A DNA stretch of 32,000 nucleotides from Xylanibacter ruminicola 23 (GTDB taxonomy: Bacteria; Bacteroidota; Bacteroidia; Bacteroidales; Bacteroidaceae). A program made the translations under genes and the position numbers. Shown in pieces: positions 1,238 to 27,707 of this stretch (within the stretch, counting starts at the first letter, position 1; every line of letters starts with the position of its first letter). The notes under the pieces are model-generated. The model saw nothing but the letters and a program-made list of their open reading frames with translations, had not been told where the DNA came from and ran no database searches. The stretch spans positions 2,190,001-2,222,000 of the forward strand of contig NC_014033.1 of NCBI RefSeq assembly GCF_000025925.1, read 5' to 3'.

Positions 1238-2977
1238 TTAGAATGATATTGTTAAGGAGCCGCCAATTACGAAAGTATGGCGGTTCTTTTTTATATGTGT
1301 GGTCACAGGCGACATCTCCGATATCATGTCAGCAGCATATGCCGGATCTATCTCCTGCATCATCTCCGCAAAGTCGAAATATGTCGGGAGAGCCGAATGC
1401 ATGAACTGTGTGGGATTATACTCCAACGTATAGGTCTTACGGGCCATATCATAATCTACAAACAGGCGCCAGGCATAATTCTCCTTGTAGGCATAGGTCA
1501 GCGAGATACCTGTTCCCCACTTAAAGGTGTTGTTGGCATTCAGCGTAAAGTAATCCCATTTGGTATCGTAGGTCTCATCTGTCTCGTAGAAAAAATTGGG
1601 ATCATCATCCAAGATGGCCATGGGGTTGACATCCACCACCTTACCCTGGTAATGGGCAGAGAGATTCAGCTCCTGCATGATACTACGACCGGCCAGCAAC
1701 TTGGCGCCCATAGCAAAACGCTTAGAGAGTGGCAGATTGAAATACACACCAAGGTCGGCAGCGAACTCTGTCAGGTGGTCGCTCTCAATCGTAAACTGAG
1801 GCTGTTTATCAGCTGTTCTGAAGACGATATTATTCAGTGGTCTCAGGTCCATGTCGGCATCAAGATCCTTAAACATCTCCTTCACATCCTGGTCGGCATA
1901 GTTCAACACGCGGTCCCAGCCATTGATAGGTGTGCTATTCACACGCAGACGACCACCCACACCAACATACTTATTGAAGAAATAGGCACCCTCGGCAGAT
2001 ACGGCAGTAGAAGCACCAAACTTCAGGTTAAAGTTGTCGTGGGCATCACTCATGGTCTCCGCACCGAAGTCGAGCGATTGCGAACCTAATCCTAATCCCA
2101 TCGAGATAGAGAAGAACGATGGATGGTCGATGATGCTACGCTCGCTGATGGCATCGCCACGCAACAGCCCCTTACCCTTGAAAATCAGGTCGCTCATGGC
2201 ATAAGCCAACTCACCCGACATGATACCTACACCAGCACCTGAGAGCACATCGCTTACCCAGTGACGGTTGTTCAGCACACGCATCACACCAGTAGCTGTG
2301 GCCACACCATAACCAGCCACAGAGTACCAAGGCGAACGGGTTAAGCCATACTCCTTATGCAGAATGGTAGCACCCACAAAGGCTGTTGCTGTATGACCGC
2401 TGGGCCATGAGTTACGTGTAGAACCATCGGGGCGCATCTCCTTGGCGGTGTACTTAATACTGTTGACAAACAAGGCCATGAAACCATACGACATAGCTGT
2501 AGAGGCCAGATAACGCCCCCAATCACTACGCCCCTCTACACCAGCAATCTTCAAGCCAGTAGCCATCACCGGACCAAAGAACTGGGTGTAGTTATCAATC
2601 TCGGTCTTAAAGTCGGTCACCAGTGTGTGCTTGTTCTCACTGGTGTTCTGACGAAACGATTTCTTCTCGCCCTTGGCAATGATACCAGCCACAAACAAAG
2701 GGATACCAGCAAAGGTGAGATCGTCCATCACCTTATAGGGTTTTACACCAGGGTTGGTACGCATCCACGTGAGCTGATATTTCTCGCTGCTACCCATCAA
2801 AGGCGACATGGGCAGTTCCAGTTCCTGACGATAGGCAGGGGCAGCCTGACAGTCGAGCTTCATCTCCATCTCAGGCGTCTGCAACTTCAACGGTTCCAGA
2901 TTGATATCAAGATCAGCGGCTTTTGCTACGTTGCCCATAGCAAACATCATGAGTAATACAAAAAAAGTTTTCTTCAC
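1238..2977 (-). CDS. PAP2-family phosphatase with signal peptide and long beta-rich C-terminal domain
   Basis: 579-aa ORF with signal peptide MKKTFFVLLMMFAMGNVAKA. PAP2 motifs are present: KEMRPDG, WPSGHTA, NNRHWVSDV. The C-terminal ~300 aa have an alternating beta-strand pattern and end in GGSLTISF. Confidence 0.8.
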   Translation of the reverse strand: MKKTFFVLLMMFAMGNVAKAADLDINLEPLKLQTPEMEMKLDCQAAPAYRQELELPMSPLMGSSEKYQLTWMRTNPGVKPYKVMDDLTFAGIPLFVAGIIAKGEKKSFRQNTSENKHTLVTDFKTEIDNYTQFFGPVMATGLKIAGVEGRSDWGRYLASTAMSYGFMALFVNSIKYTAKEMRPDGSTRNSWPSGHTATAFVGATILHKEYGLTRSPWYSVAGYGVATATGVMRVLNNRHWVSDVLSGAGVGIMSGELAYAMSDLIFKGKGLLRGDAISERSIIDHPSFFSISMGLGLGSQSLDFGAETMSDAHDNFNLKFGASTAVSAEGAYFFNKYVGVGGRLRVNSTPINGWDRVLNYADQDVKEMFKDLDADMDLRPLNNIVFRTADKQPQFTIESDHLTEFAADLGVYFNLPLSKRFAMGAKLLAGRSIMQELNLSAHYQGKVVDVNPMAILDDDPNFFYETDETYDTKWDYFTLNANNTFKWGTGISLTYAYKENYAWRLFVDYDMARKTYTLEYNPTQFMHSALPTYFDFAEMMQEIDPAYAADMISEMSPVTTHIKKNRHTFVIGGSLTISF

Positions 2978-3157: not shown

Positions 3158-4618
3158 ATGATGCATAAGTACGAAGAAGCGGTACGCTGCTTGTTATGCG
3201 AGGATGCTCCTTGCACCAAAGCGTGCGGTAAAGGTGACGTGGCCAGAGCCATCCGTGCCATCCGATTTGATAACGAAAAGAATGCCTGGCGCTGGGTAGC
3301 GGGTTGTACTGACGACGATCTGTTACGTGCCGAACAGGCGTGTATCCACTACGATCAACCTATCAGAATCAAGGAACTGCTGGCAGATTGCGCATCTGCC
3401 AAGGAACAGACGGTTGATGCCATGCAACAATCGCTGGGTATCACATTCTGCGGCATTGACTGCGAGAATCCATTCTTCTTAGCATCATCGGCCGTATGTA
3501 CCAACTACGATATGGTGGCACGCGCCTTTGAGGCTGGTTGGGCAGGTGTGTTCTATAAGACCATCTGTAAGCAGGATATCCGTGAGGTATCGCCCCGTTT
3601 CGATGCAGTAAAGAAAGGCACTACCTTTGCGGGATTCCGTAACATGGAGCAGTTGTCGGAGAATCCCTATCAGGTAGATTTCGACATTCTGCGCCGATTG
3701 AAGCAGAACTACCCCACCAAGGTGGTAATTGCCTCGATTATGGGACAGTTTGAGGAGGAGTGGATAGAGCTGGCCAAGCTGGCCGAAGAGGCTGGCTGCG
3801 ATGCAATAGAGTTGAACTTCTCGTGCCCACAGATGCGACTGGCAGGTATGGGTAGCGACATCGGTCAGGATCCGGAGTTGGTGAACTTCTACACCAGCTA
3901 TGTAAAACGTAGCGTAAAGATTCCTGTGATACCCAAGATGACACCTAACATCACGCAGATGACCCGTCCGGCTATGGGGGCTTACTTTGCTGGTGCCGAT
4001 GCCATCTCGGCTATCAACACCATCAAGAGTGTGACCATGTCGAAAGAGGCTGAGGTGAGCGGTAAGCAAACCCTATCGGGCTACAGCGGACAGGCTGTAA
4101 AGCCCATTGCCTTGCGCTTTATCCTGGAGATGAGTATGGATCCTGTGATTAACGGTACACATGGCAGAGCCATAGAACTGAGTGGTATAGGTGGTATTGA
4201 GACATGGCGCGATGCCGTGGATTTCATACAGTTAGGTTGTAGGAACGTACAGGTTTGTACCGCCGTGATGCAGTATGGCTATCGGATTATAGACGACCTG
4301 GTATCAGGTTTGCAGACCTACCTGACAGAACGAGGATTTGAGAAGTTAGACGACCTGGTAGGCGAACAGCTGCCCAACTTTGTGAGACCATCCGACCTGG
4401 ATCGCGACACCATGGTATATCCCAAGGTGGACCATGAGCGCTGTATCGGTTGCGGGCGCTGTTATATCTCGTGTATGGATGGCGGACACCAGGCCATTGC
4501 GTTCGAGGAGCGCCAGCCACGCATCATAGGCACCAAGTGCGTAGGCTGTCACCTATGTCGACTGGTATGTCCCACTGGGGCCATCGGACTTACCAAACGT
4601 ATTCCAAAAAAGAGATGA
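3158..4618 (+). CDS. preA: Dihydropyrimidine/dihydroorotate dehydrogenase-family flavoprotein with 4Fe-4S ferredoxin domains (PreA-like)
   Basis: 486 aa with a DHODH-like TIM-barrel loop (IELNFSCPQ). Two C-terminal ferredoxin motifs are present (CIGCGRCYISC, CVGCHLCRLVCP), plus an N-terminal Cys cluster (CLLCEDAPCTKAC). Confidence 0.75.
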   Translation: MMHKYEEAVRCLLCEDAPCTKACGKGDVARAIRAIRFDNEKNAWRWVAGCTDDDLLRAEQACIHYDQPIRIKELLADCASAKEQTVDAMQQSLGITFCGIDCENPFFLASSAVCTNYDMVARAFEAGWAGVFYKTICKQDIREVSPRFDAVKKGTTFAGFRNMEQLSENPYQVDFDILRRLKQNYPTKVVIASIMGQFEEEWIELAKLAEEAGCDAIELNFSCPQMRLAGMGSDIGQDPELVNFYTSYVKRSVKIPVIPKMTPNITQMTRPAMGAYFAGADAISAINTIKSVTMSKEAEVSGKQTLSGYSGQAVKPIALRFILEMSMDPVINGTHGRAIELSGIGGIETWRDAVDFIQLGCRNVQVCTAVMQYGYRIIDDLVSGLQTYLTERGFEKLDDLVGEQLPNFVRPSDLDRDTMVYPKVDHERCIGCGRCYISCMDGGHQAIAFEERQPRIIGTKCVGCHLCRLVCPTGAIGLTKRIPKKR

Positions 4619-5325
4619 ACAGAATAATCGTTATACTTTGTCTGTTGCTTGGTACTATAACCATGCAGGCACAAAACGCATTTGTAGGTCAGCATCGCTA
4701 TAATGGTGAGCATAAAAACGAGATATCGGGCTATGCAATAGCAGGTAACAACGTGGTTGTTAGTGGCTATGGCGGTTTCGGTCTCTCGTATAAACGGCAT
4801 TTGAATGATCGTTGGCATGTGGGGGCTGATGTTCAACAACAGTGGGGCAAGCAGCTCTACTCGAACGACGTGCAGGGTGGTTACCGGTTGCCCGTCTGGT
4901 GGGGTGATATCTATATAGATGGCAAACTGATGTACAACCGCTACAATCGCTGGAATGCCAACGAAACTATCGGGAACCTCTCTCTGACTTGGGAGATGCC
5001 GTATTTCTATCTGCGAGTAGGTGAATCGTATATTCATTGGAAAACCGGTGACTTCGGCTATACCGAACCACTGACTCTTACCTTCGGATTCGGAGCCATG
5101 ATTCGTCCACGTACCAACTCATGGAATATTGGACTCTTTTTCCGTAACTACGACGATTTCTATTATGAGAACTGGAACATCAACTGGGGACTGAATTTTT
5201 ACGGGAGACTGACCAAACAGATGTACTTATTTGGCGAACTCAATATCCGTCCCGCTGGCAGTATGAGTCAGTTGGCCAGTAAATACGAAACATCGGGAAA
5301 ATTAGGACTTAAATACGCATGGTGA
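4615..5325 (+). CDS. Secreted beta-barrel-like outer-membrane protein, function unknown
   Basis: The in-frame ATG at 4615 overlaps the upstream stop (ATGA). Signal peptide is MNRIIVILCLLLGTITMQAQ. The sequence is aromatic and Gly-rich with a beta pattern, and ends in KYAW. The track start at 4450 lies inside the upstream gene. Confidence 0.6.
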   Translation: MNRIIVILCLLLGTITMQAQNAFVGQHRYNGEHKNEISGYAIAGNNVVVSGYGGFGLSYKRHLNDRWHVGADVQQQWGKQLYSNDVQGGYRLPVWWGDIYIDGKLMYNRYNRWNANETIGNLSLTWEMPYFYLRVGESYIHWKTGDFGYTEPLTLTFGFGAMIRPRTNSWNIGLFFRNYDDFYYENWNINWGLNFYGRLTKQMYLFGELNIRPAGSMSQLASKYETSGKLGLKYAW

Positions 5326-6305
5326 CAATGAAGACTACACATTATATATTATTAGGAGCTGTACTGCTGGTGCTTTCGGCTTGCGACAAAGTGAGTCCGA
5401 TTGGAGTATTGGTAAGTGGCACGGGTGTTGAGGATCGTGTTAAGATGTCGAATGCCTATTATCAGGGTCATAAGGGTGAAGGTAGTATGCTCAGTGGTTA
5501 TGAAGGGGATGAATACACATTCTTAGTGGGTGCCGACAGTCATCTGACAACCGATGATGGTCGTATGCGCGAAATGCTACAGATTGCGCTCGACAACAAC
5601 GATCTGCTGATAGCGCATCTGGGTGATATCGCCGATACCAAAGCAGAATACTACATCATACTTGAAGACCTGATAGATGAGTATCGAGAGAAATATGCGA
5701 AGAAATACTACGCCGAACAGTATTTGAACGATGAAAAATTCTCGCTTGATCAGGTGAGATATCCCTTTTATCCAGTGGTGGGCAATCATGATATCACACA
5801 TAATGGATGGGCATTGTGGTCGAACATATTCCACTCATCGTTCTATGATGTCTATGTGCTGGTAAATCTCGATCCTCCTCAGTTAGATCATTTTATTTTC
5901 CTCGACTCGGCCAGTGGTACGTTGGGACGTGAACAGGTCAGACTATTAGAAGAAGGCGTATTGAATGATTATTATGATACAGGTGAGAAAATAATCCGTC
6001 ATACCTTCGTATTCAGTCATACCAATATCTTCCGTCCGCGATCAGTAGAGTTCGCCTCTACCTTCCCGCGTGAGGAGATGTTCTTCCTGTTGAACAAGTT
6101 TAGTGAGTGGGAAACGGATATGGTATTCCTAGGGCATGTGCATAAATGGGACTATCAGAAAGTAGGCGATACCGAATACCTGACGCTCGACTCGATGTGT
6201 GAGGCCAACAATCCCCAACCTGGCGATTATCTGGTTCGTGTGCATGTGAAGAAAGACGGCACTATCAGTTGGGAGAAGGTTAGAATGAATTATACCAAAA
6301 AATAA
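5319..6305 (+). CDS. Calcineurin-like metallophosphoesterase lipoprotein
   Basis: 328 aa with a lipobox (LLVLSAC) and the motifs GDIAD, GNHD and GHVH. It overlaps the upstream gene by 7 nt. An alternative ATG lies at 5328. Confidence 0.75.
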   Translation: MVTMKTTHYILLGAVLLVLSACDKVSPIGVLVSGTGVEDRVKMSNAYYQGHKGEGSMLSGYEGDEYTFLVGADSHLTTDDGRMREMLQIALDNNDLLIAHLGDIADTKAEYYIILEDLIDEYREKYAKKYYAEQYLNDEKFSLDQVRYPFYPVVGNHDITHNGWALWSNIFHSSFYDVYVLVNLDPPQLDHFIFLDSASGTLGREQVRLLEEGVLNDYYDTGEKIIRHTFVFSHTNIFRPRSVEFASTFPREEMFFLLNKFSEWETDMVFLGHVHKWDYQKVGDTEYLTLDSMCEANNPQPGDYLVRVHVKKDGTISWEKVRMNYTKK

Positions 6306-6310
6306 AAAAA

Positions 6311-6340
6311 GGGCGCGCATCAACTGCGGGCCCTTTTGTT
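6311..6340 (+). terminator. Rho-independent terminator after the phosphoesterase gene
   Basis: GC stem GGGCGCGC...GCGGGCCC followed by TTTTGTTGTT and preceded by an A-run. Confidence 0.6.
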
Positions 6341-6583
6341 GTTAACTATTCGTTTAACATCTACTAACAAAGTTTTTAAAACCAACTACTAACTAAATTC
6401 GATTGCAAATATACAACATTGTATGACTGTTTGCAAGTATTTTAACAATATTTACCCGCAGAAATCAAAAAAGTACGCATCTTTGCAAAATGACGACTGC
6501 AAGTTATACAATTTTGCCTTAGGTATATGCGCATAAAAAATGTTAAAGTTTTAATTATCGTCCCGACTAATCGAAAAATATCG

Positions 6584-6591
6584 TATCTTTG
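6584..6591 (+). promoter_or_regulatory. Bacteroidetes -7 promoter box (TATCTTTG)
   Basis: Exact TAnnTTTG about 30 nt upstream of the ATG at 6622. The flank (ATATCGTATCTTTGCAG) matches the one at 3103. Confidence 0.55.
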
Positions 6592-6621
6592 CAGCGAGAT
6601 TTTAAGACAATTTAAGCTATT

Positions 6622-7419
6622 ATGCCAATTAAGAAATACATTCAGCCTGTTTATATACTTGCAATGTGCTTCGTGATTCTACTCACAAGCAGTTGCAAGC
6701 GCCAAGCAAATGCGACTGCCACAGTGGTTGCTCCTGATGATGCCAGTGGCTTTGTAACACTGACCGATGCTGTACCCGATGCCATCCTGGAGATACGTTA
6801 CTTTGGTACCTACAACTTTGTGGGACAGCGTATTGATGGTTATCTGGAACCCACAGCCCTGCTCACCAAGCAAGCAGCAGACAGTCTGCGTGCAGTGAGC
6901 GACGACGTGAAGGCGCAGGGTTACCGACTAAAGATTTACGATGCTTATCGTCCACAAAAGGGTGTTGACCATTTTGTACGTTGGGCAGAGGATATACCTG
7001 ATACACTGATGAAGCGCTACTTCTACCCCGACTTAGACAAGAGCGTACTGTTTGAGCAGGAGTATATCTATGAGAAGAGCGGACACACACGTGGCAGCAC
7101 GGTTGATCTGACCCTGTTTGACATGAACACAGAGAAGGAACTCGACATGGGTGGCACCTTCGACTGGTTCGGACCAGAGAGTCATCCTGACTTCTGCGGT
7201 AATCCCGAAACAGGCGATTACACGGGTGACAACTCGAAGTCGCCCCAGGGCCGTAAGATTACCGAAAAACAGTTTAATAACCGCATGATACTGCGCAACG
7301 CCATGCTGGCACATGGTTTTAAACCACTCGACAGCGAATGGTGGCATTTTACACTTGAGAACGAACCATATCCTGATACCTATTTTACTTTTGAGGTGAA
7401 ACAGCTAAAACAAAAATAA
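6622..7419 (+). CDS. ddpX: D-alanyl-D-alanine dipeptidase (VanX/DdpX, peptidase M15D) lipoprotein
   Basis: 265 aa with a lipobox (LLTSSC) and the VanX-type zinc motifs SGHTRGSTVDLTL and EWWHF. Confidence 0.85.
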   Translation: MPIKKYIQPVYILAMCFVILLTSSCKRQANATATVVAPDDASGFVTLTDAVPDAILEIRYFGTYNFVGQRIDGYLEPTALLTKQAADSLRAVSDDVKAQGYRLKIYDAYRPQKGVDHFVRWAEDIPDTLMKRYFYPDLDKSVLFEQEYIYEKSGHTRGSTVDLTLFDMNTEKELDMGGTFDWFGPESHPDFCGNPETGDYTGDNSKSPQGRKITEKQFNNRMILRNAMLAHGFKPLDSEWWHFTLENEPYPDTYFTFEVKQLKQK

Positions 7420-7443
7420 ATAGGGAAGGAAAATCTAACGAAT

Positions 7444-7490
7444 GAAAAAACGAAAGGGGGAGATGCTGTCGTCGCGACGGGGTCTCCCCC
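7444..7490 (-). terminator. Strong intrinsic terminator, functional on the minus strand
   Basis: The minus strand reads GGGGGAGA-(19-nt loop)-TCTCCCCC followed by TTTCGTTTTTTC. The plus-strand reading has no U-tract. Confidence 0.8.
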
Positions 7491-7559
7491 GAACTTATAT
7501 AATAATACACGTATGATTGCCTCAACCACCCTTACATCGAGAGTGTTTCAGCAACAAAA

Positions 7560-7712
7560 TCGCAGAAGGCTGGTCTTCAGACTTTCCTCCACTATCCGAC
7601 GCCTTCTCGCTCAAAACGGGGCAATGGCCTATAGTCGGACAGCCATAATGGAGTTCACTGCTGCGGGACAGTCGGAGATTCTCACTCACATTCCCAATTA
7701 AGCACAGTTACG
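7560..7712 (-). promoter_or_regulatory. Cobalamin (B12) riboswitch-like aptamer
   Basis: The minus strand carries TTGGGAATGTGAGTGAGAATCTCCGACTGTCCCGCAGCAGTGAA. This resembles the recalled core pattern GGGAA..GGTG.GAA.TC....CTG.C.CGCAGC.GTAA. It also carries GCCATTG...GTGGAGGAAAGTC and a B12-box-like AAGTCTGAAGACCAGCC. The comparison to the E. coli btuB leader and the Rfam consensus is from memory. Confidence 0.75.
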
Positions 7713-7724
7713 TGCACCTTCGCG

Positions 7725-7746
7725 GGTGATATTACGCAATATCACC
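7725..7746 (-). other. 9-bp perfect hairpin immediately after the lrp stop
   Basis: GGTGATATT-ACGC-AATATCACC. There is no U-tract on either strand. Confidence 0.5.
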
Positions 7747-7748
7747 AG

Positions 7749-8246
7749 TTATCCCTCGGCCGACGCTTCGGCTTCGGTATCTTGTGTCAGCAAATCGGCA
7801 ATAGGCAGCTGACGGTCGATAGCCGTATGGAACGATATCAGCGTCTCACTGCTTGAAAGGCCGAGTGGCTGCAGCTTATCATGGATAATAGTAAGCAGAT
7901 GGTGGTTATTGCGGGCATAGATCTTGATAAACATATCAAAGTTACCCGTGGTAAAGTGGCACTCCACCACCTCAGGAATCTGCTTCAGTTGTTCAAGTAC
8001 CTCGTCGAACTTAGCGGGGTCTTTCAGGTTCAGACCAATAAAGGCACAGGTCTCGTAGCCCACGCTTTCGGGCTCAATCAGGTACTGGGTGCCCTTCAGT
8101 ACACCCATGTTGTTCATCTTCTGGATGTGCTGGTGAATAGCAGCACCACTTACATTACAAGCACGAGCCACCTCCAGGAATGGAATACGGGCATCGGCGG
8201 CTATCAGACTCAGAATCTGCTTGTCGAGTTCGTCAATTTTTACCAT
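7749..8246 (-). CDS. lrp: Lrp/AsnC-family transcriptional regulator
   Basis: 165 aa with an N-terminal HTH (LDKQILSLIAADARIPFLEVARACNVSGAAIHQHIQKM) and a C-terminal RAM/AsnC domain. Confidence 0.85.
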   Translation of the reverse strand: MVKIDELDKQILSLIAADARIPFLEVARACNVSGAAIHQHIQKMNNMGVLKGTQYLIEPESVGYETCAFIGLNLKDPAKFDEVLEQLKQIPEVVECHFTTGNFDMFIKIYARNNHHLLTIIHDKLQPLGLSSSETLISFHTAIDRQLPIADLLTQDTEAEASAEG

Positions 8247-8254: not shown

Positions 8255-8707
8255 TTATTTTTTGATTTCTGTTGCACTATAATTAATCTTCAAGGCATAG
8301 GCCTGTTGCAGCTGGCGTTTCACCTCGCTGACCAAACCCATGGGGGCCTTTTTATCAACACGCAGACTAACGGTGAGTCGCTGTTGATTCTCTTGAGAGA
8401 GCCCACTACGAATCTCTTCGATACGGGCTGGAATATCGCCTGGCTGTACGATGTCGTTGTTGAGCTGTACATGCCAAGCCTCACCTTTATGGCCGATATA
8501 GATGTTTACCACGGCCTGCTTATTGGCTAACTTCTGCACCTCGCTGCCCTGAGGCACCTGCAGGCGCACCTTTACCTCGTCGCTACGCATGTGGGTGACA
8601 ATCATGAAGAAGAAGAGCACCGTAAAAATCAGGTCGGGCATCGAGGCCACATTGAGAGATGGCACACTGCGACGAGTCTGACTGAACTTGCTACGCATAG
8701 GTCTCAT
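8255..8707 (-). CDS. exbD: ExbD/TolR biopolymer transport protein
   Basis: 150 aa with a single N-terminal TM (DLIFTVLFFFMIV) and an ExbD-like periplasmic domain. It overlaps the upstream exbD by 4 nt. Confidence 0.8.
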   Translation of the reverse strand: MRPMRSKFSQTRRSVPSLNVASMPDLIFTVLFFFMIVTHMRSDEVKVRLQVPQGSEVQKLANKQAVVNIYIGHKGEAWHVQLNNDIVQPGDIPARIEEIRSGLSQENQQRLTVSLRVDKKAPMGLVSEVKRQLQQAYALKINYSATEIKK

Positions 8708-9228
8708 TGGGCACCTCCTTCCTGGGCTATCTGCCCTTCGCTGATACGTTGTGGATAGTACTCGTTGATCATCTCGCGCTGTTCGGCATTACAGGTCTCG
8801 TAGGTACAGCCATAGTGCTTCTGCGCATACTCTTGGCGCAGAGTATGATAGGCGCCCACAATGGCATCCTGCATACTGAAATAGGCCTCATAGGTGGTCT
8901 TGGCATCGGCTTCGATCTGCACTACATGACCAGTGCGGTTCACCATGGCCAACGTACGTACCTCGGCTGCCAGTTGTTGCAGTGTCACAGGTTTGCCATC
9001 ACACGAGAGTTGGTTCTGTGCATCCAGCTTAACCTGCATCACATTGTTGCGATTGATATCCTTAGGTGTCTCGTGTTCCAATGGCGGTGGTGCCATCTGA
9101 CGCATCAATCCCTTCTCCGTGTCCATCGATGAGGTCACGAGGAAGAAAATCAACAACATAAACGATATGTCGGCTGTTGATGTGGTGTTCAGCTCCGGAA
9201 TTTGCTGACGATAGCGCTTACGAAACAT
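8704..9228 (-). CDS. exbD: ExbD/TolR biopolymer transport protein (second copy)
   Basis: 174 aa with an N-terminal TM (ADISFMLLIFFLVTS) and an ExbD fold pattern. Confidence 0.8.
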   Translation of the reverse strand: MFRKRYRQQIPELNTTSTADISFMLLIFFLVTSSMDTEKGLMRQMAPPPLEHETPKDINRNNVMQVKLDAQNQLSCDGKPVTLQQLAAEVRTLAMVNRTGHVVQIEADAKTTYEAYFSMQDAIVGAYHTLRQEYAQKHYGCTYETCNAEQREMINEYYPQRISEGQIAQEGGAQ

Positions 9229-9548
9229 CCGATAATCAATATAATAGAGGTATATATAAACATATCAGCGGCACGCAACCAGAAGCCATCGGTAAGCCAC
9301 GTGCCATTAGTAAGGATGGGCTTGGTAGAACCTAAGGCAAAGGTAACCACCATGATGAGCACAAAGCCCACAGCCACCAGCCATCCAATGCGCCCTGCAG
9401 GCACACCGTTAACCACATCGCTGCCCTTACGACGGTTGCGCAAACCATGCCATACCGAATAGGCAGTTACACCTATGGCAGCAGCTAATATTATATACAT
9501 CAGCCACAGCATCACATCGGCAATAGCAGGCGAAATAAAACTATTCAT
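9189..9548 (-). CDS. Small integral membrane protein in the ExbBD operon
   Basis: About 119 aa with three predicted TM helices. The ATG at 9548 is preferred over the GTG at 9551. It lies between exbB and exbD. Confidence 0.6.
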   Translation of the reverse strand: MNSFISPAIADVMLWLMYIILAAAIGVTAYSVWHGLRNRRKGSDVVNGVPAGRIGWLVAVGFVLIMVVTFALGSTKPILTNGTWLTDGFWLRAADMFIYTSIILIIGCFVSAIVSKFRS

Positions 9549-9568
9549 CACTATTCACTCTTCACTAT

Positions 9569-10411
9569 TCACTCTTCACTCTTTGTCTTCCACTCAGCAA
9601 TCAGGTCGAGCAGTGTAATGGCAGCTTCTTCCATCTGTGCGGTCAAACGTTCAATCTTTGAGAGGATGTAGCTGTAGAACAGCTGCAATACCAACGCTAC
9701 TATAATACCAAAGATAGTGGTAATGAGCGCCACCTTCATACCCTGAGCCACGATGGTTGGACCGATATCGCCTACTTGCTGAATCTGGTCGAAGGCCATC
9801 ACCATACCAATCACAGTGCCCAGGAATCCGAGCGATGGTGCCATGGCAATGAAGAGCTTAATCCACGAGCAACCTTTCTCAAGATTAGCAGTTTGCAGAC
9901 CACCAAAGTTGGTGATGCTACGCTCGATGGCATCCATGGGCTGTTTGATATGCAGCAATCCCTGATAGCACACTGAGGCTACAGGACCACGGGTGTTACG
10001 ACAGAGTGTTTTGGCACCCTCTACATCATTGGCCTTCAGGCGCTGTTCGATATCTGCCATCAGCTGATGACTCTTAATCTCGCTCAGTGTCAGATAGATA
10101 ATACGCTCAATGCAGAATGCCAGACCCAGCACTAAGGCCAGGGCCACCAGCGACATGAAGGCTACGTTGCCATCAACAAACTTGGTCTTCAGCTGTTTGT
10201 GCAGACCACCACCCTCTTCAGCCTCATCGCCTGTAAGAGCTTCCAACTCACCATCCATCACGGTCATGGAGTCGGTAGCAGCCACAGAATCGGCAGGCAC
10301 CACAGCAGCAGCGCTCTTAACACTATCAGCTGCAACTGCGGACTGAGCGAAACAGGTTTGCGAAAAACTAAGCAGACCTATCAGTGTAAATAGAAAAACC
10401 AATCGTTTCAT
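9569..10411 (-). CDS. exbB: MotA/TolQ/ExbB proton-channel family protein
   Basis: 280 aa with a signal-like N-terminus and the conserved C-terminal TM core (APSLGFLGTVIGMVMAF...ALITTIFGIIVAL). Confidence 0.85.
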   Translation of the reverse strand: MKRLVFLFTLIGLLSFSQTCFAQSAVAADSVKSAAAVVPADSVAATDSMTVMDGELEALTGDEAEEGGGLHKQLKTKFVDGNVAFMSLVALALVLGLAFCIERIIYLTLSEIKSHQLMADIEQRLKANDVEGAKTLCRNTRGPVASVCYQGLLHIKQPMDAIERSITNFGGLQTANLEKGCSWIKLFIAMAPSLGFLGTVIGMVMAFDQIQQVGDIGPTIVAQGMKVALITTIFGIIVALVLQLFYSYILSKIERLTAQMEEAAITLLDLIAEWKTKSEE

Positions 10412-10428
10412 ATATATTTCTTAATCCG

Positions 10429-10516
10429 CGGAGAGAACAGGATTCGAACCTGCGAGCCGGTTTTGCCGGCTACACGCTTTCCAGGCGTGCCTCTTCAACC
10501 ACTCGAGCACCTCTCC
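10429..10516 (-). tRNA. tRNA-Ser (anticodon GGA)
   Basis: The minus strand reads GGAGAGGTGCTCGAGTGG...CACGC-CTGGAAA-GCGTG, then a long variable arm (GCCGGCAAAACCGGC), then GCAGGTTCGAATCCTGT-TCTCTCC-G. The cloverleaf was folded by hand. No CCA is encoded. Confidence 0.9.
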
Positions 10517-12280: not shown

Positions 12281-12976
12281 TTATAAATTAAATACAATAG
12301 GAATACACACCATCGTGCGACAGGGCTTGGCATTCATCATACCGGCCTTCCACTGTGGCATGGTCTTGAGCACACGCATCACTTCAGCATCGCAGGCAGG
12401 CTCCAGGGGCTGTACCACCTGCAGGTCGCTCAACGAGCCATCCTTGTTAACAACAAACTGTGCCACCACTCTGCCCTTGATTTTTTTCTGTTGGGCCGAG
12501 GGGGGATATTTCAGGTTCTGCGTGAGCCACTTCATAAACTCGACGGCACCACCAGGGAACTGCGGCAGGTCTTCAACCACGCGGAAGTCGATGGGTTCGT
12601 CGTACATATCCACTACCTGAGGCTTCTCTTCGGCAGCCTTCTCGGTGGGTTCTTCTTGTTCGGTCTCTTCCTGCAGGATGGGTTCGGGGGGTAGCTCCAC
12701 ATCATTATCCACCAAGTGTAGCTGCTCGCTCTCTTGTTTTTCAACTTTCTTTTCCTGAGGCATCATCATCGGCACTTCGTCCTTATCGCGCTTCAGGGGC
12801 GAGAGTTCCACCTCGGCTTCCAGACTGTCGTCGTCATCAAAAAGCGCCCAGCCAGTATCGCCACTGTTCCACTCGAGTAGCACAAACAGCGTGGCCAGCA
12901 CCACAATCAGTCCCAGCAGGAACCCCTGTGTGCGTTTCTGTTCCAAATCCGCTTCGCTACTCTTCTTGATTTCCAT
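12281..12976 (-). CDS. tonB: Energy transducer TonB
   Basis: 231 aa with an N-terminal TM, an acidic/Pro-rich linker and a C-terminal TonB domain (PQFPGGAVEFMKWL...GRVVAQFVVNKDGS). Confidence 0.8.
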   Translation of the reverse strand: MEIKKSSEADLEQKRTQGFLLGLIVVLATLFVLLEWNSGDTGWALFDDDDSLEAEVELSPLKRDKDEVPMMMPQEKKVEKQESEQLHLVDNDVELPPEPILQEETEQEEPTEKAAEEKPQVVDMYDEPIDFRVVEDLPQFPGGAVEFMKWLTQNLKYPPSAQQKKIKGRVVAQFVVNKDGSLSDLQVVQPLEPACDAEVMRVLKTMPQWKAGMMNAKPCRTMVCIPIVFNL

Positions 12977-21419: not shown

Positions 21420-21512
21420 TCAATCTGTGCCAACTACGCCCGCAAAACTCTTTGCCAGTACCCAAAGTGGCGCAAACATCAAGAGGGGCAATATCAATTT
21501 TACCTTGTTCAT
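21420..21512 (-). pseudogene. 30-codon remnant resembling an Rhs signal peptide
   Basis: MNKVKLILPLLMFAPLWVLAKSFAGVVGTD* compares with the Rhs N-terminus MNKIKQLLGLLLFAPVCVLAQS. The stop codon directly abuts palindrome copy A. Confidence 0.4.
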
Positions 21513-21565
21513 TATATATTATGTCACTCAGGTAAAGAGAGATTGAGAGATTCTTTCCATGATTC

Positions 21566-22138
21566 CTAATAATTAAAACAATTGTTCCTACCTGTTACAA
21601 ATTTTAATCTATTAGTATCAACATAGAAACCGTATTTTTTATTTCCATATGGCATTTCGTTGGATTGTTTATAAATTGTTATCGAGTTATTGTTCTTATC
21701 CCAAAATCCAATACCTATATATACCGAATCTTCGGAAAGGGGGCGATCCAAGACTACAAATTCTCCATATTTCCCTATAATATTAGTATTGTCGTTTCTA
21801 TAACAACAAATACGATCAATGTGTATAACACTTTCAAAATTTCCTGATGATATTGTGATACAATTATCCCAGCCAAAGTCAACAGTTACTTTTCCACCTT
21901 TATATGGTATGTCTTTAAACGACATTCCTTTGGTAAGAAACAAGGCTTTTCTATATGTTTTAATACGTTCTTCATATGACAAAATAGTTTCATTAATGGT
22001 AGCATTTCCATAATCTGACTCTATCTGATCAAGTTGGCAGAATGGATAATATACAAATCGAAACCATAAGATACCAAACGCAAACAAAAACAATAACAAT
22101 GCAATTCTAAAACCACCAATATGTATTCTCATATTCAA
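21566..22138 (-). CDS. Candidate immunity protein for the Rhs toxin tip 1 (TM-anchored, no recognisable family)
   Basis: 190 aa with an N-terminal TM (FRIALLLFLFAFGILWF). It is AT-rich, and its start overlaps the Rhs 3' end by 32 nt. Confidence 0.55.
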   Translation of the reverse strand: MNMRIHIGGFRIALLLFLFAFGILWFRFVYYPFCQLDQIESDYGNATINETILSYEERIKTYRKALFLTKGMSFKDIPYKGGKVTVDFGWDNCITISSGNFESVIHIDRICCYRNDNTNIIGKYGEFVVLDRPLSEDSVYIGIGFWDKNNNSITIYKQSNEMPYGNKKYGFYVDTNRLKFVTGRNNCFNY

Positions 22139-25100
22139 AATTTTTTATTCCAGGTTTATCATTTCCATTATAATTTCCATTAATTGTTGGCTCTTTACCA
22201 TTTTTAATAGTATGCCATTCTCCTTCTTTGTATCCTTGGGGTGTATTATCCCCAATGCTAATACTAGTATCTGAAGCCACTCCGATACGTCTGTTTGGAG
22301 CGATAAATATTATGTCTTTAAATGCTTTATCTCTAGATATTTCTCGCACAACAGCACTTGAACCACATGAATAAAACACTATATGTAGGTCTTCTTTACT
22401 TATCTCACCTTTCTGGAATTTATTCCAAGTTTTGGAATTTGCAGAAAGAAAATCATTTAACTGCTTTCCATTTGAGATATAATTATGGTTCCATTCCTTG
22501 TTTTCTGTATTATAAGTTTGTATATCAATACTAGATGCAAAACGACTTTTTTCATTTTCGTATACTCCATGAGCAACAATCATAATTGAATTCTTGTCAT
22601 TATGTGCAACTAAATTTTTAGCAAGTTCTTTGAGAACCGCATTGTCTGCACAATAAGCTCCTAATCCATCGCGTACTTCTTTTCCATTTGGATCAATCAA
22701 CTTTATAGGATTATTTGCACAGTACGCATACGGACTGACATTATAATACTTTTCTGCCAATGGATCAATTCTATCCCATCTAGCGAGGATGGGGTCATGT
22801 TGTCTTGCACCATAGTCATAAGTATTCAATCCATGCATTTTGTCCAATTCCTTGCCGTTATATTTGTAGGGTTGGAAATCTGCGGCTGTAGATTCGGCAC
22901 ATGTGGCACCAAAGGGGTAGTAGTTCGTAACCTGTTGCACGGTGCCACTTGCATTTACCACTTCACGGATGTTACCCAGATGGTCTGGGGTATAATAATA
23001 GAACGTAAAGTTATCGCTCGTAGAACTTGTGGCTGATGCCTGAGCGTATCCACCATCGAACAAGTACTTATCAACCTTGCCATTCTTCATAACCAGACTT
23101 CCGCCAAGCAGATAGTCTGTTGAATCTGCCTGCAGGATTTGCGATGATGTCAGTTCTGCTGGCTTCACACCCCACGTGCGGCTGATATTTGGCTTGGCGG
23201 TATAGTGAACAGCGCGTAACTTCTGCCCCGAAGCAGTATATACATATTTGGTTACACTGCCATTCATAAAATATATCTGCTTTGGATTGTTGTTCAGGTC
23301 ATAAGTGATATAGGCTATACCGCGGCTCTTATCAGCTTGCAGCGAGCCATTGGCATTGAACTTATACCCAGAGCCGTTGGCCTTCTTGTATTCCATACCC
23401 CCGCTGGCGTTATTATCAGAGGCTGACTCAGAAACACTTGATGGCTGGTTACCAGTATAACTGATAGTGAGGTTGTCCATCAATGTACCATTACCATAGC
23501 GGGTAAGGCCGGTAATGTTGCCATTAGCATCATACGACATGGATTCACTGTACCTATTCGTATTACTACCAAGTGCATCACCCTCGCCATAGGCCCCCGA
23601 GGTCAACCTGTTGGCAGTATCATAGCTGAACTTATAACCACGCTTGGAACTTTGAGTGTTATCTTTCCAGCGGATGCTGCTGATATTGCCATTATAAAGT
23701 GTTGTGCCAGGACCGTCGGCATAGAACAGTTCTTCAGTAAAAGAACCTGTGGATATGTTCGTCAACCAGCCGCGCAAATCATAGGTATAACTGATGGCAT
23801 TTGATGAGTTTGAGCGTCCAACCGTTGACAGCCTGCCCAGGCTGTTGTGGGCATAGCTTACTGAACCATTGGCCGCTGTACCATGGTTTACTGTGAGTGT
23901 ATGGCTGCTCTGCTGGTTGTTATAGGCATTATAACCGAAACTCTCGCTCACGGTCATGTTGCTGCCATACTTTACATCGATAGTAGATGTGGATTGTGAT
24001 AGCTTGTTGGTATATGTGTAGCTGCTGGTGTTTGAGATAATCCTGCCACCGATTTCCTTGCTCTTGGAGCTGGTGATATTACCCTTGAGGTCGTACTGCA
24101 TGGCCTGCGCCAGCTCATCGCCATTGGTGGCTTTAGTAACAACACCTGTGAGCTGTGCTTTCTGCGAGACAGAAGATGAAAGCGTAAGGACTGAGAAACG
24201 GGAATTACTACTTTGGTTGCCATCGTAATAGTTGGCTATCTCAAGTTCGGCATTCGTTAACGCAGGGGTATTGCTATAGCCAGTACCAAGCACACCAGTT
24301 GAGCCAGAGCTGAATGTTGCATTCCAGACAGTAGAACTATTCAGGCAATTGGTGCACAGTCCCTGCACCACCAGACGATCGAACTTGTCGTAGATAAGAA
24401 AGCGGTATTTGTCTGCACTGCGCATCTCGGCATCACGCATACAAATCATCCTGTCGGCACCGTCGTACCAGTATTCTATATAGCCAGCCCCAGGAAGTTG
24501 CTTGTAGGTGATACGCCCCCTGTCGTCATAGCGGTATTCATAACCTGTAGCCGCAAGGTTCTTGTCCGACTGGTATTTGGGTGGCAGGACAAAACGCAGA
24601 TGGTCAAGGTTGTCATAGACATAATAGGTACAAAGACTGCCACCCACACGCTGCATGACAGTATTGCCAAACAGATTTGTGAATGTCTCCACTTCCTTGC
24701 CATCAGGGTCTTTCGTTGTTTCTTTTGTCAGGCTGTTAGCGGGATAATATCCGTCCTGCACCAGGCTATTGCCACTCACACCATAGCGGATCACCTCATT
24801 GGCTGCATTGGCTGCGTAGGCTATCGTGGCAGGACTGCTGGCATAGGCAGAACCAGGAGTGGTAACAGCAACAGGCCTGTCCAAAGCATCATACTGCGTC
24901 CGGCCATAAGGGGTATTCTCACCATAGCTGATACCTGTTGGGGTAGCATAACCTATGGACGAACCGATAGAAACAGGCGCATACTTACGTTCCTCACGTC
25001 CTAATGCATCGTATGTTATCGCTGAGTAGGACGTTTGTCCGCCGTCGCCAGTTGTACTCACTGACACAGTAGGATAGCCAAGACCGTTATAGTACTGCAC

Positions 25101-25229
25101 AGACTTCACGGTGCTACCACTCGAATTGAGCACCGTCTCTGTCTTGACATAGTTCTGGTCAGTGCTTTGCGCCAATACACAAACCGGCGCAAACAACAAG
25201 AGACCTAATAGCTGTTTTATCTTATTCAT
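22107..25229 (-). CDS. Rhs/YD-repeat polymorphic toxin, full length
   Basis: 1040 aa with signal peptide MNKIKQLLGLLLFAPVCVLAQ. It has many YD units (ITYDALGRE, YRYDDRGRI, FSYDTANRL, MSYDANGNI). The Rhs core ends at YDYGARQHDPILARWDRIDP...NNPIKLIDPNG (DPNG at 22683-22694). A 191-aa AT-rich tip follows. Confidence 0.9.
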   Translation of the reverse strand: MNKIKQLLGLLLFAPVCVLAQSTDQNYVKTETVLNSSGSTVKSVQYYNGLGYPTVSVSTTGDGGQTSYSAITYDALGREERKYAPVSIGSSIGYATPTGISYGENTPYGRTQYDALDRPVAVTTPGSAYASSPATIAYAANAANEVIRYGVSGNSLVQDGYYPANSLTKETTKDPDGKEVETFTNLFGNTVMQRVGGSLCTYYVYDNLDHLRFVLPPKYQSDKNLAATGYEYRYDDRGRITYKQLPGAGYIEYWYDGADRMICMRDAEMRSADKYRFLIYDKFDRLVVQGLCTNCLNSSTVWNATFSSGSTGVLGTGYSNTPALTNAELEIANYYDGNQSSNSRFSVLTLSSSVSQKAQLTGVVTKATNGDELAQAMQYDLKGNITSSKSKEIGGRIISNTSSYTYTNKLSQSTSTIDVKYGSNMTVSESFGYNAYNNQQSSHTLTVNHGTAANGSVSYAHNSLGRLSTVGRSNSSNAISYTYDLRGWLTNISTGSFTEELFYADGPGTTLYNGNISSIRWKDNTQSSKRGYKFSYDTANRLTSGAYGEGDALGSNTNRYSESMSYDANGNITGLTRYGNGTLMDNLTISYTGNQPSSVSESASDNNASGGMEYKKANGSGYKFNANGSLQADKSRGIAYITYDLNNNPKQIYFMNGSVTKYVYTASGQKLRAVHYTAKPNISRTWGVKPAELTSSQILQADSTDYLLGGSLVMKNGKVDKYLFDGGYAQASATSSTSDNFTFYYYTPDHLGNIREVVNASGTVQQVTNYYPFGATCAESTAADFQPYKYNGKELDKMHGLNTYDYGARQHDPILARWDRIDPLAEKYYNVSPYAYCANNPIKLIDPNGKEVRDGLGAYCADNAVLKELAKNLVAHNDKNSIMIVAHGVYENEKSRFASSIDIQTYNTENKEWNHNYISNGKQLNDFLSANSKTWNKFQKGEISKEDLHIVFYSCGSSAVVREISRDKAFKDIIFIAPNRRIGVASDTSISIGDNTPQGYKEGEWHTIKNGKEPTINGNYNGNDKPGIKNFEYENTYWWF
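22761..23318. repeat. Direct repeat R1 (Rhs core end), paired with 26412-26970
   Basis: Hand alignment gives a constant offset of about 3651-3652 nt. Most positions are identical, roughly nine in ten by eye (not computed). Confidence 0.85.
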
Positions 25230-25266
25230 CTATTACAAATAGCAATAACAAATCGTCCCCTTATAT

Positions 25267-25707
25267 TCATTGCTCAATAACATCTTCATCTATTCTTTCT
25301 CTATTATAGAAAGATACAAAATTTCCACGGCCATATATTATTATCAAAGGTTTATTTTGAGCCTTCCAGTCAATAACTGAATCTATCAAATTATAGTTAA
25401 TTTTAGGAGAAGATTTCACCTCTTTAATAATACTTGAATTTTTGGTGTATATATCTACAGATTTAAAATCCACATAATGTAATGGTATATCGGGAAAGTT
25501 TTTGTCGAAACTCATAAACTTTATATAATTGTCACCAAACTCCTTGCTATGGCTCAAATATACATAGCTTATATCTGTATAATAATTTGCTGTTACTTTT
25601 ACATACATTTTAATAGCAGGGATATAATAGATTCTGCTATGGGACGTCACATAATATTTTAAAACTAACATTATGATTGCTAAAATTATAATCACCCACT
25701 TTTTCAT
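25267..25707 (-). CDS. Candidate immunity protein for orphan toxin tip 2 (TM-anchored)
   Basis: 146 aa with an N-terminal TM (WVIIILAIIMLVLKYYV). It is AT-rich and lies 12 nt downstream of the orphan Rhs stop. Confidence 0.5.
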   Translation of the reverse strand: MKKWVIIILAIIMLVLKYYVTSHSRIYYIPAIKMYVKVTANYYTDISYVYLSHSKEFGDNYIKFMSFDKNFPDIPLHYVDFKSVDIYTKNSSIIKEVKSSPKINYNLIDSVIDWKAQNKPLIIIYGRGNFVSFYNRERIDEDVIEQ

Positions 25708-25719
25708 AACTCGTCTTTT

Positions 25720-27042: not shown

Positions 27043-27087
27043 AATTTGGTATTTTAAGTTATTGTGGCGTTATAAAAACATCCGATG

Positions 27088-27095
27088 CAAAAATA
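27088..27095 (-). promoter_or_regulatory. Possible -7 promoter box for the Rhs operon (TATTTTTG on minus strand)
   Basis: TAnnTTTG match about 46 nt upstream of the ATG at 27042, in the AT-rich spacer between palindrome copies B and C. Confidence 0.35.
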
Positions 27096-27167
27096 TAAAA
27101 AGCAAATTTAAATACGACGTATTTAACAAAGAATAACGAAACTTTAATTTTTTATAGCACACATCAT

Positions 27168-27196
27168 GCCTGCCAGGGGACAGTCCCGTGGCAGAC
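27168..27196. repeat. 29-nt imperfect palindrome, copy C
   Basis: GCCTGCCAGGGGACAGTCCCGTGGCAGAC. Arms CTGCCA/TGGCAG and GGGAC/GTCCC can pair. Confidence 0.9.
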
Positions 27197-27234
27197 TTAA
27201 AGCTGTTAGTCGGGGGAATAGTTGATATCTTGGC

Positions 27235-27387
27235 CTACTTCGCAAGAAGTTCTTCGATTTTCTTTATGAAGTCTTTTGATGTCTGGATTTGATCTGCCAG
27301 GTCTTTTTCAGAAATGTCGTAAGCACAGTTGTAATCTGCTTTTTGACGTAACTGCATCATTCTTGCAAGGAAACCTTCAGCTTCCAT
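27235..27387 (-). CDS. Mini-HEPN-like ORF (50 aa), possibly a truncated toxin partner of the MNT gene
   Basis: MEAEGFLARMMQLRQKADYNCAYDISEKDLADQIQTSKDFIKKIEELLAK. It resembles only the C-terminal half of HEPN domains (the R..aDY region). Its ATG lies 2 nt after the MNT stop. It is too short to appear in the ORF track. Confidence 0.45.
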   Translation of the reverse strand: MEAEGFLARMMQLRQKADYNCAYDISEKDLADQIQTSKDFIKKIEELLAK

Positions 27388-27389
27388 AA

Positions 27390-27707
27390 TTATACCAGAA
27401 CTATGCCATCACGAGTCACATTCTCGTAGAATGGGGTAATACGATATGATTCCCACTCTTTAGTAGTGTACATGATGGGGTTGATTTCTTGACCTAAGTC
27501 GCAGCCTAATAGGACAAACGGATAACTGACATTGTCGTAATCAGATTGGTCAAGGGTGTCCTTATCTAATAGAATAAGGATATCCCAATCTGAATCTTTA
27601 TGAGCATCACCTCTGGCTCTTGAACCATAAAGGATGGCCTTACCACCTTTGGGAATAGTAGAGGCGGCTGTCTGCTTTATCCGTGTTAATGCTGCTCTTG
27701 TAGTCAT
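27390..27707 (-). CDS. Nucleotidyltransferase-domain protein (MNT-type antitoxin-like)
   Basis: 105 aa with the pol-beta NTase motif LYGSRARGDAHKDSDWDILILLD. Confidence 0.8.
   Translation of the reverse strand: MTTRAALTRIKQTAASTIPKGGKAILYGSRARGDAHKDSDWDILILLDKDTLDQSDYDNVSYPFVLLGCDLGQEINPIMYTTKEWESYRITPFYENVTRDGIVLV

Follow-up and report, generated by a model that had tools for sequence, protein, structure and literature searches.

A cobalamin riboswitch directly behind lrp in Xylanibacter ruminicola 23 and its possible action on the upstream gene

Bacterial riboswitches are understood to act from the 5' leader of a transcript, where they determine what becomes of the sequence downstream of them. 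In EutX of Enterococcus faecalis and Rli55 of Listeria monocytogenes, a B12 riboswitch lies within a small RNA (sRNA) that sequesters the ANTAR protein EutV, and in plants a thiamine pyrophosphate (TPP) riboswitch is said, after work by Wachter et al. in 2007, to sit in the 3' untranslated region (UTR) of THIC. The element described here is a cobalamin (vitamin B12) riboswitch on the minus strand of a 32,000-nucleotide stretch of Xylanibacter ruminicola 23 (contig NC_014033.1, positions 2,190,001 to 2,222,000; hereafter the window), located between the regulatory gene lrp and the convergent gene ddpX. Our preferred interpretation, to which we give about even chances, is that this module is an intact riboswitch forming the 3' UTR and terminator of the exbB-exbD-exbD-lrp transcript and acting in cis on the upstream lrp, B12 lowering the lrp mRNA by a mechanism that we infer below. 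The parts of the element, in minus-strand order, and the two flanking genes are listed in window coordinates. L numbers are locus labels of this analysis, which covered 80 Prevotellaceae species-level loci fetched via Lrp, contigs from a metagenome scan for the exact 22-mer of the list (L081-L200), and further lrp-linked metagenome or assembly copies (L133, L148, L201-L210).

7749-8246 (-): lrp, Lrp/AsnC-family regulator of 165 aa (Pfam HTH_AsnC-type, HTH_24, AsnC_trans_reg), stop codon at 7749-7751
7725-7746 (-): 5' hairpin, here P0, of 9 bp, GGUGAUAUU-GCGU-AAUAUCACC, seen in the sequence, with no U tract
7551-7736 (-): cobalamin riboswitch aptamer RF00174, full length, from Rfam cmscan
7517-7555 (-): P13-like hairpin directly 3' of P1, apex CUCGAUGUAAGGG conserved family-wide
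7494-7515 (-): invariant 22-mer CAUACGUGUAUUAUUAUAUAAG (= CATACGTGTATTATTATATAAG), single-stranded, recognized by sequence conservation
7445-7490 (-): intrinsic terminator, hairpin 7456-7490 with GCGA(C) apex and U tract 7445-7455
7421-7444 (-): post-terminator segment CATTCGTTAGATTTTCCTTCCCTA, 24 nt, kept in most lrp-linked copies and missing in L202 and L209
6622-7419 (+): ddpX, Peptidase_M15 D-Ala-D-Ala dipeptidase (Pfam), convergent with lrp

In its architecture the element resembles the transcriptional OFF type of RF00174, in which an aptamer with a B12 box, P1-P6 and a peripheral extension is followed by a hairpin and U-tract terminator, and its sister copies precede genes for B12 uptake and salvage, as part of their 5' leaders, and are B12-repressed in vivo. 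Unlike that type, the lrp copy has neither promoter nor downstream gene and begins 2 nt past the stop codon of another gene, and the B12-responsive gene lies upstream. EutX and Rli55 share with it a cobalamin riboswitch that has no coding target and is followed by a terminator, B12 deciding the form of the RNA in those two cases. They have their own promoter, ANTAR-binding hairpins beyond the terminator and the eut regulon, whereas the lrp element has a conserved partner (the 22-mer) before the terminator, an exbBD-lrp context and a conserved read-through of only 24 nt (7421-7444). AspocR of Listeria and the S-box-controlled antisense RNA of the ubiG operon of C. acetobutylicum likewise aim a riboswitch and terminator into a convergent gene; their antisense target is a conserved partner, whereas the convergent gene at the lrp element varies by lineage and, on the KHP1 tags searched, shows no B12 response. 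The defining features of classical leaders, of AspocR-type and of EutX/Rli55-type riboswitches are lacking here. The closest analogue in apparent working is the plant THIC riboswitch, a 3'-UTR aptamer that lowers the upstream coding mRNA through 3'-end formation and stability, although it is no relative: it is eukaryotic, acts by alternative splicing and polyadenylation, and has another ligand and another aptamer family.

An earlier sequence-only reading of the window had called an orphan cobalamin riboswitch on the minus strand, and the covariance-model search that it proposed, run with Rfam cmscan, agreed: the aptamer scored 76.6 bits (E = 2e-17; gathering score 31.5) over model positions 1-189/189, and orthologous aptamers reached 72-77 bits. 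The B12 box AAGTCTGAAGACCAGCC is present at 7584-7568 (-) inside the aptamer, one base off the 7568-7585 given in that reading, since it spans 7568-7584. Checked against the core motifs GGGAA, GCCACUG-like and AGACCNGCC, the aptamer carries AAGUCUGAAGACCAGCC at 7584-7568 and GCCAUUG from 7628. On every feature testable here it is an RF00174 member, and cobalamin binding is predicted. The terminator hairpin (GGGGGAGA...TCTCCCCC at 7490-7456) is GC-rich and followed by the U tract TTTCGTTTTTT / UUUCGUUUUUU at 7455-7445; in a fold of the whole element it had a free energy of -21 kcal/mol and stem pair probabilities of 0.93-1.0. No T tract follows it on the plus strand, so the proposed minus-only terminator at 7444-7490 holds. 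A simple terminator scan did not list this site, because its loop limit was 3-8 nt and the hairpin has an internal loop. The other landmarks of the sequence-only reading were found as well, namely the lrp stop at 7749, the ddpX stop at 7419, the U-less hairpin at 7746-7725 and the lack of a minus-strand open reading frame (ORF) of at least 50 aa between aptamer and terminator, the sole listed ORF (7522-7689) overlapping the aptamer.

The promoter region sets the lrp copy apart from its relatives. As the sequence-only reading had noted, no TAnnTTTG box lies between lrp and the aptamer. In contrast, 30/30 other family contexts examined, including L174 and L159, place a TAnnTTTG promoter of their own immediately ahead of the 5' hairpin, and the equivalent of P0 in these paralogues is the first structure after the transcription start (TAnnTTTGCA, 3-5 nt, then the hairpin). 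At the lrp copy the last lrp codons and the stop codon occupy the position of the paralogues' promoter, and P0 begins 2 nt past the stop in the window. The copy thus corresponds to the transcribed leader of the paralogues, beginning near their transcription start and ending with the terminator, and is joined to the end of an ORF. Given that it has no promoter of its own and abuts the lrp stop, the module, if transcribed, is transcribed as the tail of the lrp message. It accordingly lacks both the own promoter and the same-strand downstream gene of a classical 5' leader, and the promoter motif of an independent transcription unit of the EutX/Rli55 type. Of the roles that had been put forward, a 3'-UTR appendage of the exbBD-lrp transcript is therefore the best supported, with a promoter in 30 other contexts and the lrp stop in its place here. 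A stand-alone sRNA is not supported as such for want of a promoter, and a processed 3'-derived RNA is possible. The only TAnnTTTG match within lrp, TAACTTTG at 7937-7944, was considered as an internal promoter and rejected: it encodes the conserved GNFDM, is present in the riboswitch-less L004 and L005, and is absent in the riboswitch-bearing L002.

The junction with lrp is constant among the lrp-linked copies found. In 22/22 such copies the module starts 2 nt past the lrp stop, and 0/22 have a same-strand gene close downstream, the nearest being a PAP2 gene about 400 nt off in L003. Among the 80 Prevotellaceae loci, most of which keep the order exbB-(orf)-exbD-exbD-lrp, the riboswitch occurs only in L001, L002, L003 and L014 (aptamers of 72-77 bits); absence elsewhere is based on Rfam for eight riboswitch-less loci from L004-L016 and on blastn or regular-expression searches for all 80. 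The exact window Lrp protein is present on 857 public contigs, and the window module is identical to that of X. ruminicola assembly L206. Lrp is at least 93% identical within the riboswitch-bearing clade and 86-89% identical in the closest riboswitch-less relatives (L004-L012), where a convergent gene follows 10-100 nt past lrp. In L012 lrp and ddpX are 25 nt apart with no module between them, a spacing that marks the insertion site. The pattern is consistent with one gain, in which about 300 nt entered the gap between convergent genes in the clade whose Lrp proteins share at least 93% identity. The lrp-linked module most likely originated by duplication of a paralogous leader without its promoter; L159 and L174, at about 85% identity, are its nearest paralogues. 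The post-terminator segment 7421-7444 probably belongs to the original insertion and is not required in all lineages.

Downstream of the terminator the neighbours differ. The gene is ddpX in the window, L001 and most strains, a metallophosphatase without ddpX in L002, L202 and L209, and a convergent GH3 gene in L014; in L003 a 400-nt AT-rich spacer is followed by the same-strand PAP2 gene, which has its own promoter-like box. ddpX is thus absent beside the element in L002, L003, L014, L202 and L209, the element is equally conserved in those loci, and this variation by lineage shows that it is not tied to ddpX. The synteny comparison proposed with the sequence-only reading gave no B12 gene after the element in relatives, only ddpX, metallophosphatase, PAP2 or GH3. 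The L003 PAP2 gene is 97% identical to window 1238-2977. The four genes of window 3158-7419 (+), encoding a DHO-dehydrogenase-like Fe-S protein, a 291-aa protein, a metallophosphatase and ddpX, are missing between riboswitch and PAP2 in L003 and partly missing in L002, L202, L208 and L209. The PAP2 match therefore identifies these four genes as variable cargo between the element and PAP2, and by this comparison of gene content 3158-7419 is a hotspot of gene turnover. As a separate observation, ddpX-less lineages have a good opposite-strand match to the Bacteroidetes promoter, GTCGTATATTTGCA, 30-100 nt past the terminator and aimed into riboswitch and lrp (L003 at about 6835-6850, L014 at about 6860-6875, also L202 and L133). 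In ddpX-bearing lineages the ddpX mRNA would supply such transcription, so that convergent transcription across the element may be a conserved feature.

The divergence of the module was compared with that of the 4-fold degenerate sites of six flanking genes, taken as the neutral reference. Divergence was 1.5% in the module against 15% at 4-fold sites for L001, 7% against 33% for L002, 6% against 28% for L003 and 18% against 43% for L014, a rate of 0.1-0.4x (Fisher p 1e-12 to 1e-20); the aptamer alone diverged by 1-14%, against 15-43% at neutral sites. Around the 22-mer, 0/24 nt changed in all four species-level lineages at 15-43% divergence of 4-fold sites, and for L014 alone the chance of such invariance at 43% neutral divergence is about 1e-6. 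Compensatory changes were found in P0 (UA->CG and GC->AU in L014 and L133), P1 (GC->AU in L003 and L148), P2 (AU->GC in L014), the P13-like hairpin (RNAalifold columns 214-253; AU->GC in L003 and L148, UG->UA in L014, CG->UA in L174) and pairs of the P6 extension. Double changes occurred at 17/95 pairs in a small sample of 10 sequences, nine of them orthologues. Judged by these patterns, the lrp-linked module is evolutionarily maintained under purifying selection. Low divergence and compensatory changes together rule out simple decay of a relic, and they argue against the aptamer being a mere passenger of a useful terminator.

The 22-mer extends well beyond lrp. It was found, exact, on at least 120 rumen or gut metagenome contigs; the matches listed fall into 31 context clusters, and about nine of them are lrp-linked. 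Among 17 representative 22-mer loci, 14 carried an RF00174 aptamer, 30-190 nt upstream of the 22-mer in 12 and 3.3 kb upstream in two. The family plan begins with a promoter (TTTG...TAnnTTTGCA), 3-5 nt, the P0 hairpin, the aptamer, the CUCGAUGUAAGGG hairpin and 0-150 variable nt, and continues with the 22-mer, UU, a hairpin whose variable, covarying stems are capped C-GNRA-G, a U tract and usually a gene. The CUCGAUGUAAGGG apex is kept in most family clusters, and the terminator caps are GUGA, GGGA, GCGA or GAGA. Genes following family leaders include those for a 133-aa flavodoxin-like protein (a weak Pfam hit), for TonB-dependent receptors, and for a hydrophobic peptide of about 29 aa together with a histidine-phosphatase-like lipoprotein. 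The 22-mer and hairpin also follow the stop codon of a CbiK-like lipoprotein or receptor gene within a riboswitch-controlled operon (L086, L113, L100, L143, L154, L171) or a small peptide gene (L098). From these positions between or after genes it follows that they form a separable terminator module of the B12 regulon that is not obligatory to an aptamer switch. Among the matches listed, the 22-mer lies almost always within cobalamin-riboswitch-controlled transcripts, in leader, intergenic or post-gene position. Copies with 1-4 substitutions were absent from 1.8 Mb of fetched Prevotellaceae DNA, no Rfam family matched 22-mer plus hairpin at E <= 10, a literature string search for the 22-mer found no paper, and viral contigs gave 0 hits. 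Its distribution suggests that the 22-mer is a B12-regulon-specific signal, in RNA or DNA, that has so far gone undescribed.

Two groups within this family deserve mention in their own right. The gene for the peptide of about 29 aa (e.g. MIYSCIVVFEFVLAFIGVGLLIRHYNHKA, MHYIFIVALEFLVTFFGVAMLIRFYNHKA) is conserved and cobalamin-riboswitch-controlled, often with the gene for the histidine-phosphatase-like lipoprotein (442 aa) following it; it stands after the terminator in L094, L099, L106, L121 and L136, and before the 22-mer in L098. About a third of contexts are gene-less family units with their own promoter (the L081, L092 and L183 clusters; L174, L115, L187, L095). The three clusters just named are diverged and comprise about 18 contigs, each beside a divergent ECF-sigma-like gene and with no same-strand gene downstream. 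From their layout, gene-less units ending in 22-mer and terminator are candidate stand-alone riboswitch RNAs.

A B12 response has been published for X. ruminicola KHP1, which was compared with and without cobalamin; four riboswitches are given in Table S5 of that study (mSystems 2024; PMC11575231). The transcriptome response to B12 was large, at 17.5% of genes. Compared with the window, riboswitch #4 (2,792,551-2,792,735 +; PMC11575231) has one base changed. Fifteen lrp-linked loci match it at 185/185 positions, no other locus does, and in each of the 15 it starts 14 nt past lrp. With B12 the Lrp/AsnC gene J4031_11665 changes by a log2 fold change (log2FC) of -3.75, about 13-fold down, which makes it the ninth most B12-repressed gene, and 0/4 of the neighbouring tags searched (11650, 11655, 11660, 11670) are in the differential-expression table, |log2FC| >= 1 (PMC11575231). 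This gene is most probably the lrp next to riboswitch #4: with 0.23-0.29 kb to each tag unit, 11665 would lie near 2.79 Mb, in a range of about 2.76-2.97 Mb, and its NCBI product name is the same as that of the MA2016 orthologue of the window Lrp. On that identification, neither the exbD gene upstream nor the neighbour downstream shifts with B12. The 13-fold decrease of J4031_11665 adds to the support for a 3'-UTR role. The other top B12-repressed KHP1 genes sit at riboswitches #1, #2 and #3. The authors point out that B12 genes follow only two of the four riboswitches; Lrp is not a subject of their discussion, nor is it mentioned in the main text (PMC11575231).

The other KHP1 riboswitches show how the family behaves. 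The flavodoxin-type leaders that bear the 22-mer (L091/L116 type) share 94-95% identity with riboswitch #2, and J4031_06995 next to it falls with B12 (log2FC -4.22; PMC11575231); the family thus acts in vivo as a B12 OFF switch. Riboswitch #1 corresponds to operons of the receptor-CbiK type, whose homologous loci L086, L113 and L143 have the 22-mer module after CbiK. Along the receptor-CbiK-receptor-cob operon, baseMean is about five-fold lower after CbiK (5677 to 1167) and the B12 fold-change is the same (Table S6, PMC11575231). This step in expression fits a partial terminator at the 22-mer module.

Under the cis interpretation, a promoter-less leader copy would have inserted between the convergent lrp and ddpX and become the new lrp 3' UTR and terminator, and B12 bound to the 3'-UTR aptamer would cause less lrp mRNA to accumulate. 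Two routes can be envisaged. In route a, B12 would favour termination at 7445-7455, as in the sister leaders, and the terminated lrp message would be far less stable than the read-through form. In route b, the B12-bound fold would free the AU-rich 22-mer, or another site or 3' region, for an endonuclease or factor; the 3' hairpin would then be lost and 3'-to-5' decay would enter lrp. Route b, if true, would explain repression of a downstream gene (#2) and of an upstream gene (#4) by one mechanism and would account for a response of the 3'-most cistron only. In the unconstrained minimum-free-energy fold of the window lineage, base pairs join UACGUGUAU, the 5' half of the 22-mer, to GUGCACGUA on the 5' strand of P2; in this model, aptamer folding would release them. 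L014, L133 and most paralogues have a different P2 loop, and the modelled pairing may be lineage-specific, a lead only and not an established feature. More tentatively still, and with somewhat less than even confidence, we suggest that the riboswitch regulates an upstream gene and that the 22-mer and GNRA-capped terminator are a shared, position-independent RNA signal of the B12 regulon, serving as a decay or processing site or as a factor-binding site.

If true, this would be a natural bacterial case of 3'-UTR riboswitch control, in which a duplicated leader can bring an existing transcription factor under vitamin control and, via Lrp, extend B12 control to a transcription-factor regulon. Confirmation of the 3'-UTR mechanism and of a specific role of the 22-mer would mark a clear departure from known bacterial riboswitch action. 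Directional RNA-seq with and without B12 exists for KHP1, a strain carrying the element (SRA PRJNA1116615, NEBNext directional, 2x150; genome CP071890). The 22-mer also offers a handle on the riboswitch platforms of Bacteroidota, and the B12-dependent propionate metabolism of X. ruminicola is of practical interest for ruminant nutrition.

Several points weigh against a direct action on lrp. Neither folding of the element nor visual comparison of family members revealed a conserved antiterminator pairing, folding of the complete element predicts that the terminator forms regardless, and to our knowledge no established mechanism lets a bacterial riboswitch lower an upstream cistron. The link between J4031_11665 and lrp, made by tag arithmetic (with an error of up to tens of kb) and product name, is unconfirmed. 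In the KHP1 data the Lrp protein is not among the differentially abundant proteins, and featureCounts settings are stated only as defaults, so that antisense reads could contribute to the counts (PMC11575231). In addition, metY falls with B12 in the same data (log2FC -5.2; PMC11575231), and regulation may be indirect: B12 restores MetH, methionine and S-adenosylmethionine (SAM) rise, and an amino-acid-sensing Lrp could be autoregulated, which would leave the element as a trans-acting RNA or a plain terminator.

Such a trans-acting RNA is unlikely in our estimate. It would be a B12-sensing noncoding RNA cut from the lrp 3' UTR, its 5' end shielded by P0, that works as an sRNA or sponge through the 22-mer, the lrp response being indirect or incidental. 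The 22-mer, terminator hairpin and U tail do form a seed-plus-terminator layout, the 22-mer is identical in all family copies, about a third of family contexts are gene-less with their own promoter, and EutX and Rli55 are precedents, as are SreA and SreB, the terminated SAM riboswitch leaders of Listeria. Like these leaders and the 3'-UTR-derived sRNA CpxQ, a short, structured, terminator-ended RNA could act in trans; no target was found for the lrp element, and the likeness is a lead only. A search of 1.9 Mb of Prevotellaceae DNA for complements of the 22-mer (at least 11-mers) returned only AT-rich chance matches, none at a meaningful place. All copies carry the same strand of the 22-mer and therefore cannot target each other. 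A trans-acting RNA also leaves unexplained why only the lrp copy lost its promoter and abuts a stop codon, and why B12 has a 13-fold effect on lrp.

That the hairpin is a mere operon terminator, which ends lrp and perhaps shields it from convergent ddpX transcription, while gene conversion with paralogues keeps the sequence of a passenger aptamer similar, we regard as improbable. In riboswitch-less relatives a convergent gene does stand 10-100 nt away from lrp, and some of them, L010 and L011, have a plain bidirectional hairpin there; the hairpin of the element is predicted to form constitutively, no antiterminator was found by folding or by eye, and paralogues of about 85% identity exist (L159, L174). 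Nevertheless, constraint acts on the aptamer itself, which diverged by 1-14% where neutral sites diverged by 15-43%, the compensatory changes in P1, P2 and P0 arose within the lrp-linked lineage and are not shared with the paralogues, and lrp is B12-responsive in KHP1, via the probable identity of J4031_11665.

Two further proposals of the sequence-only reading fared worst. An antisense RNA silencing ddpX, made by read-through past the terminator without B12, has in its favour the convergent geometry, with the ddpX stop 25 nt past the U tract, and the precedents of AspocR and the ubiG antisense RNA, yet it is very improbable given that the downstream gene varies, ddpX not being adjacent in L002, L003, L014, L202 and L209, where the element is equally conserved, and that 0/4 neighbouring KHP1 tags searched reach |log2FC| >= 1; ddpX is a convergent neighbour outside the riboswitch system. 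Equally remote is the idea of a leader left to decay as a relic after the loss of its btuB-type gene, which would suit the descent from leaders preceding genes (flavodoxin-like protein, TonB-dependent receptors, CbiK-like lipoprotein), given the purifying selection (rate 0.1-0.4x) and covariation, the identical, precise junction to the lrp stop in all lineages, the lack of a B12 gene at the lrp locus in any relative examined, and the loss of the promoter and not of the gene alone.

Several candidate features of the element were considered and set aside. A plus-strand ORF of 24 codons (MKKRKGEMLSSRRGLPRTYIIIHV, ATG at 7441-7443), which runs across terminator and 22-mer to 7525, is probably non-coding: its frame varies by lineage (two frames and a hybrid) and its start is missing in L202 and L209. 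The segment 7421-7451 (+) in its upstream part is conserved, although its reading frame is not. A kissing loop between L5 (GUCCCGC) and the terminator loop was rejected, the variation of that loop (GUGA/GGGA/GCGA/GAGA) being a GNRA signature and not an L5 complement. A helix closing the lrp stop region on the post-terminator segment was rejected as well, that segment being absent in L202 and L209. A likeness of GTGCGCATA...TGTAT..TTAT to the E. coli dif site was dropped because many copies, that of the window among them, do not conserve the left arm. The minus-strand ORFs that overlap ddpX in antisense (7033-7347) are unsupported, ddpX being a solid Pfam hit.

The genes upstream of lrp lie on the same strand, in the order tonB, ispB, tatD, tRNA-Ser(GGA), exbB, the 120-aa ORF, exbD twice and lrp, so that lrp is the final gene of the run exbB-orf120-exbD-exbD-lrp:

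12281-12976 (-): tonB (Pfam TonB_C)
10428-10516 (-): tRNA-Ser(GGA), from a tRNA match
9569-10411 (-): exbB (Pfam MotA_ExbB)
9189-9551 (-): orf120, an ORF of 120 aa between exbB and exbD
8704-9228 (-): first exbD (Pfam ExbD)
8255-8707 (-): second exbD (Pfam ExbD)

A gap of 16 nt, free of promoter boxes, separates the end of the tRNA-Ser(GGA) gene from the start codon of exbB, and exbB may be co-transcribed with the tRNA; tonB lies 2 kb upstream of tRNA-Ser/exbB on the same strand. Elsewhere in the window, 21500-27700 (-) has a GC content of 34-43% against about 50% and encodes a 1040-aa DUF6443/RHS-repeat protein, small ORFs and a nucleotidyltransferase-domain protein. This region looks like a polymorphic-toxin island.

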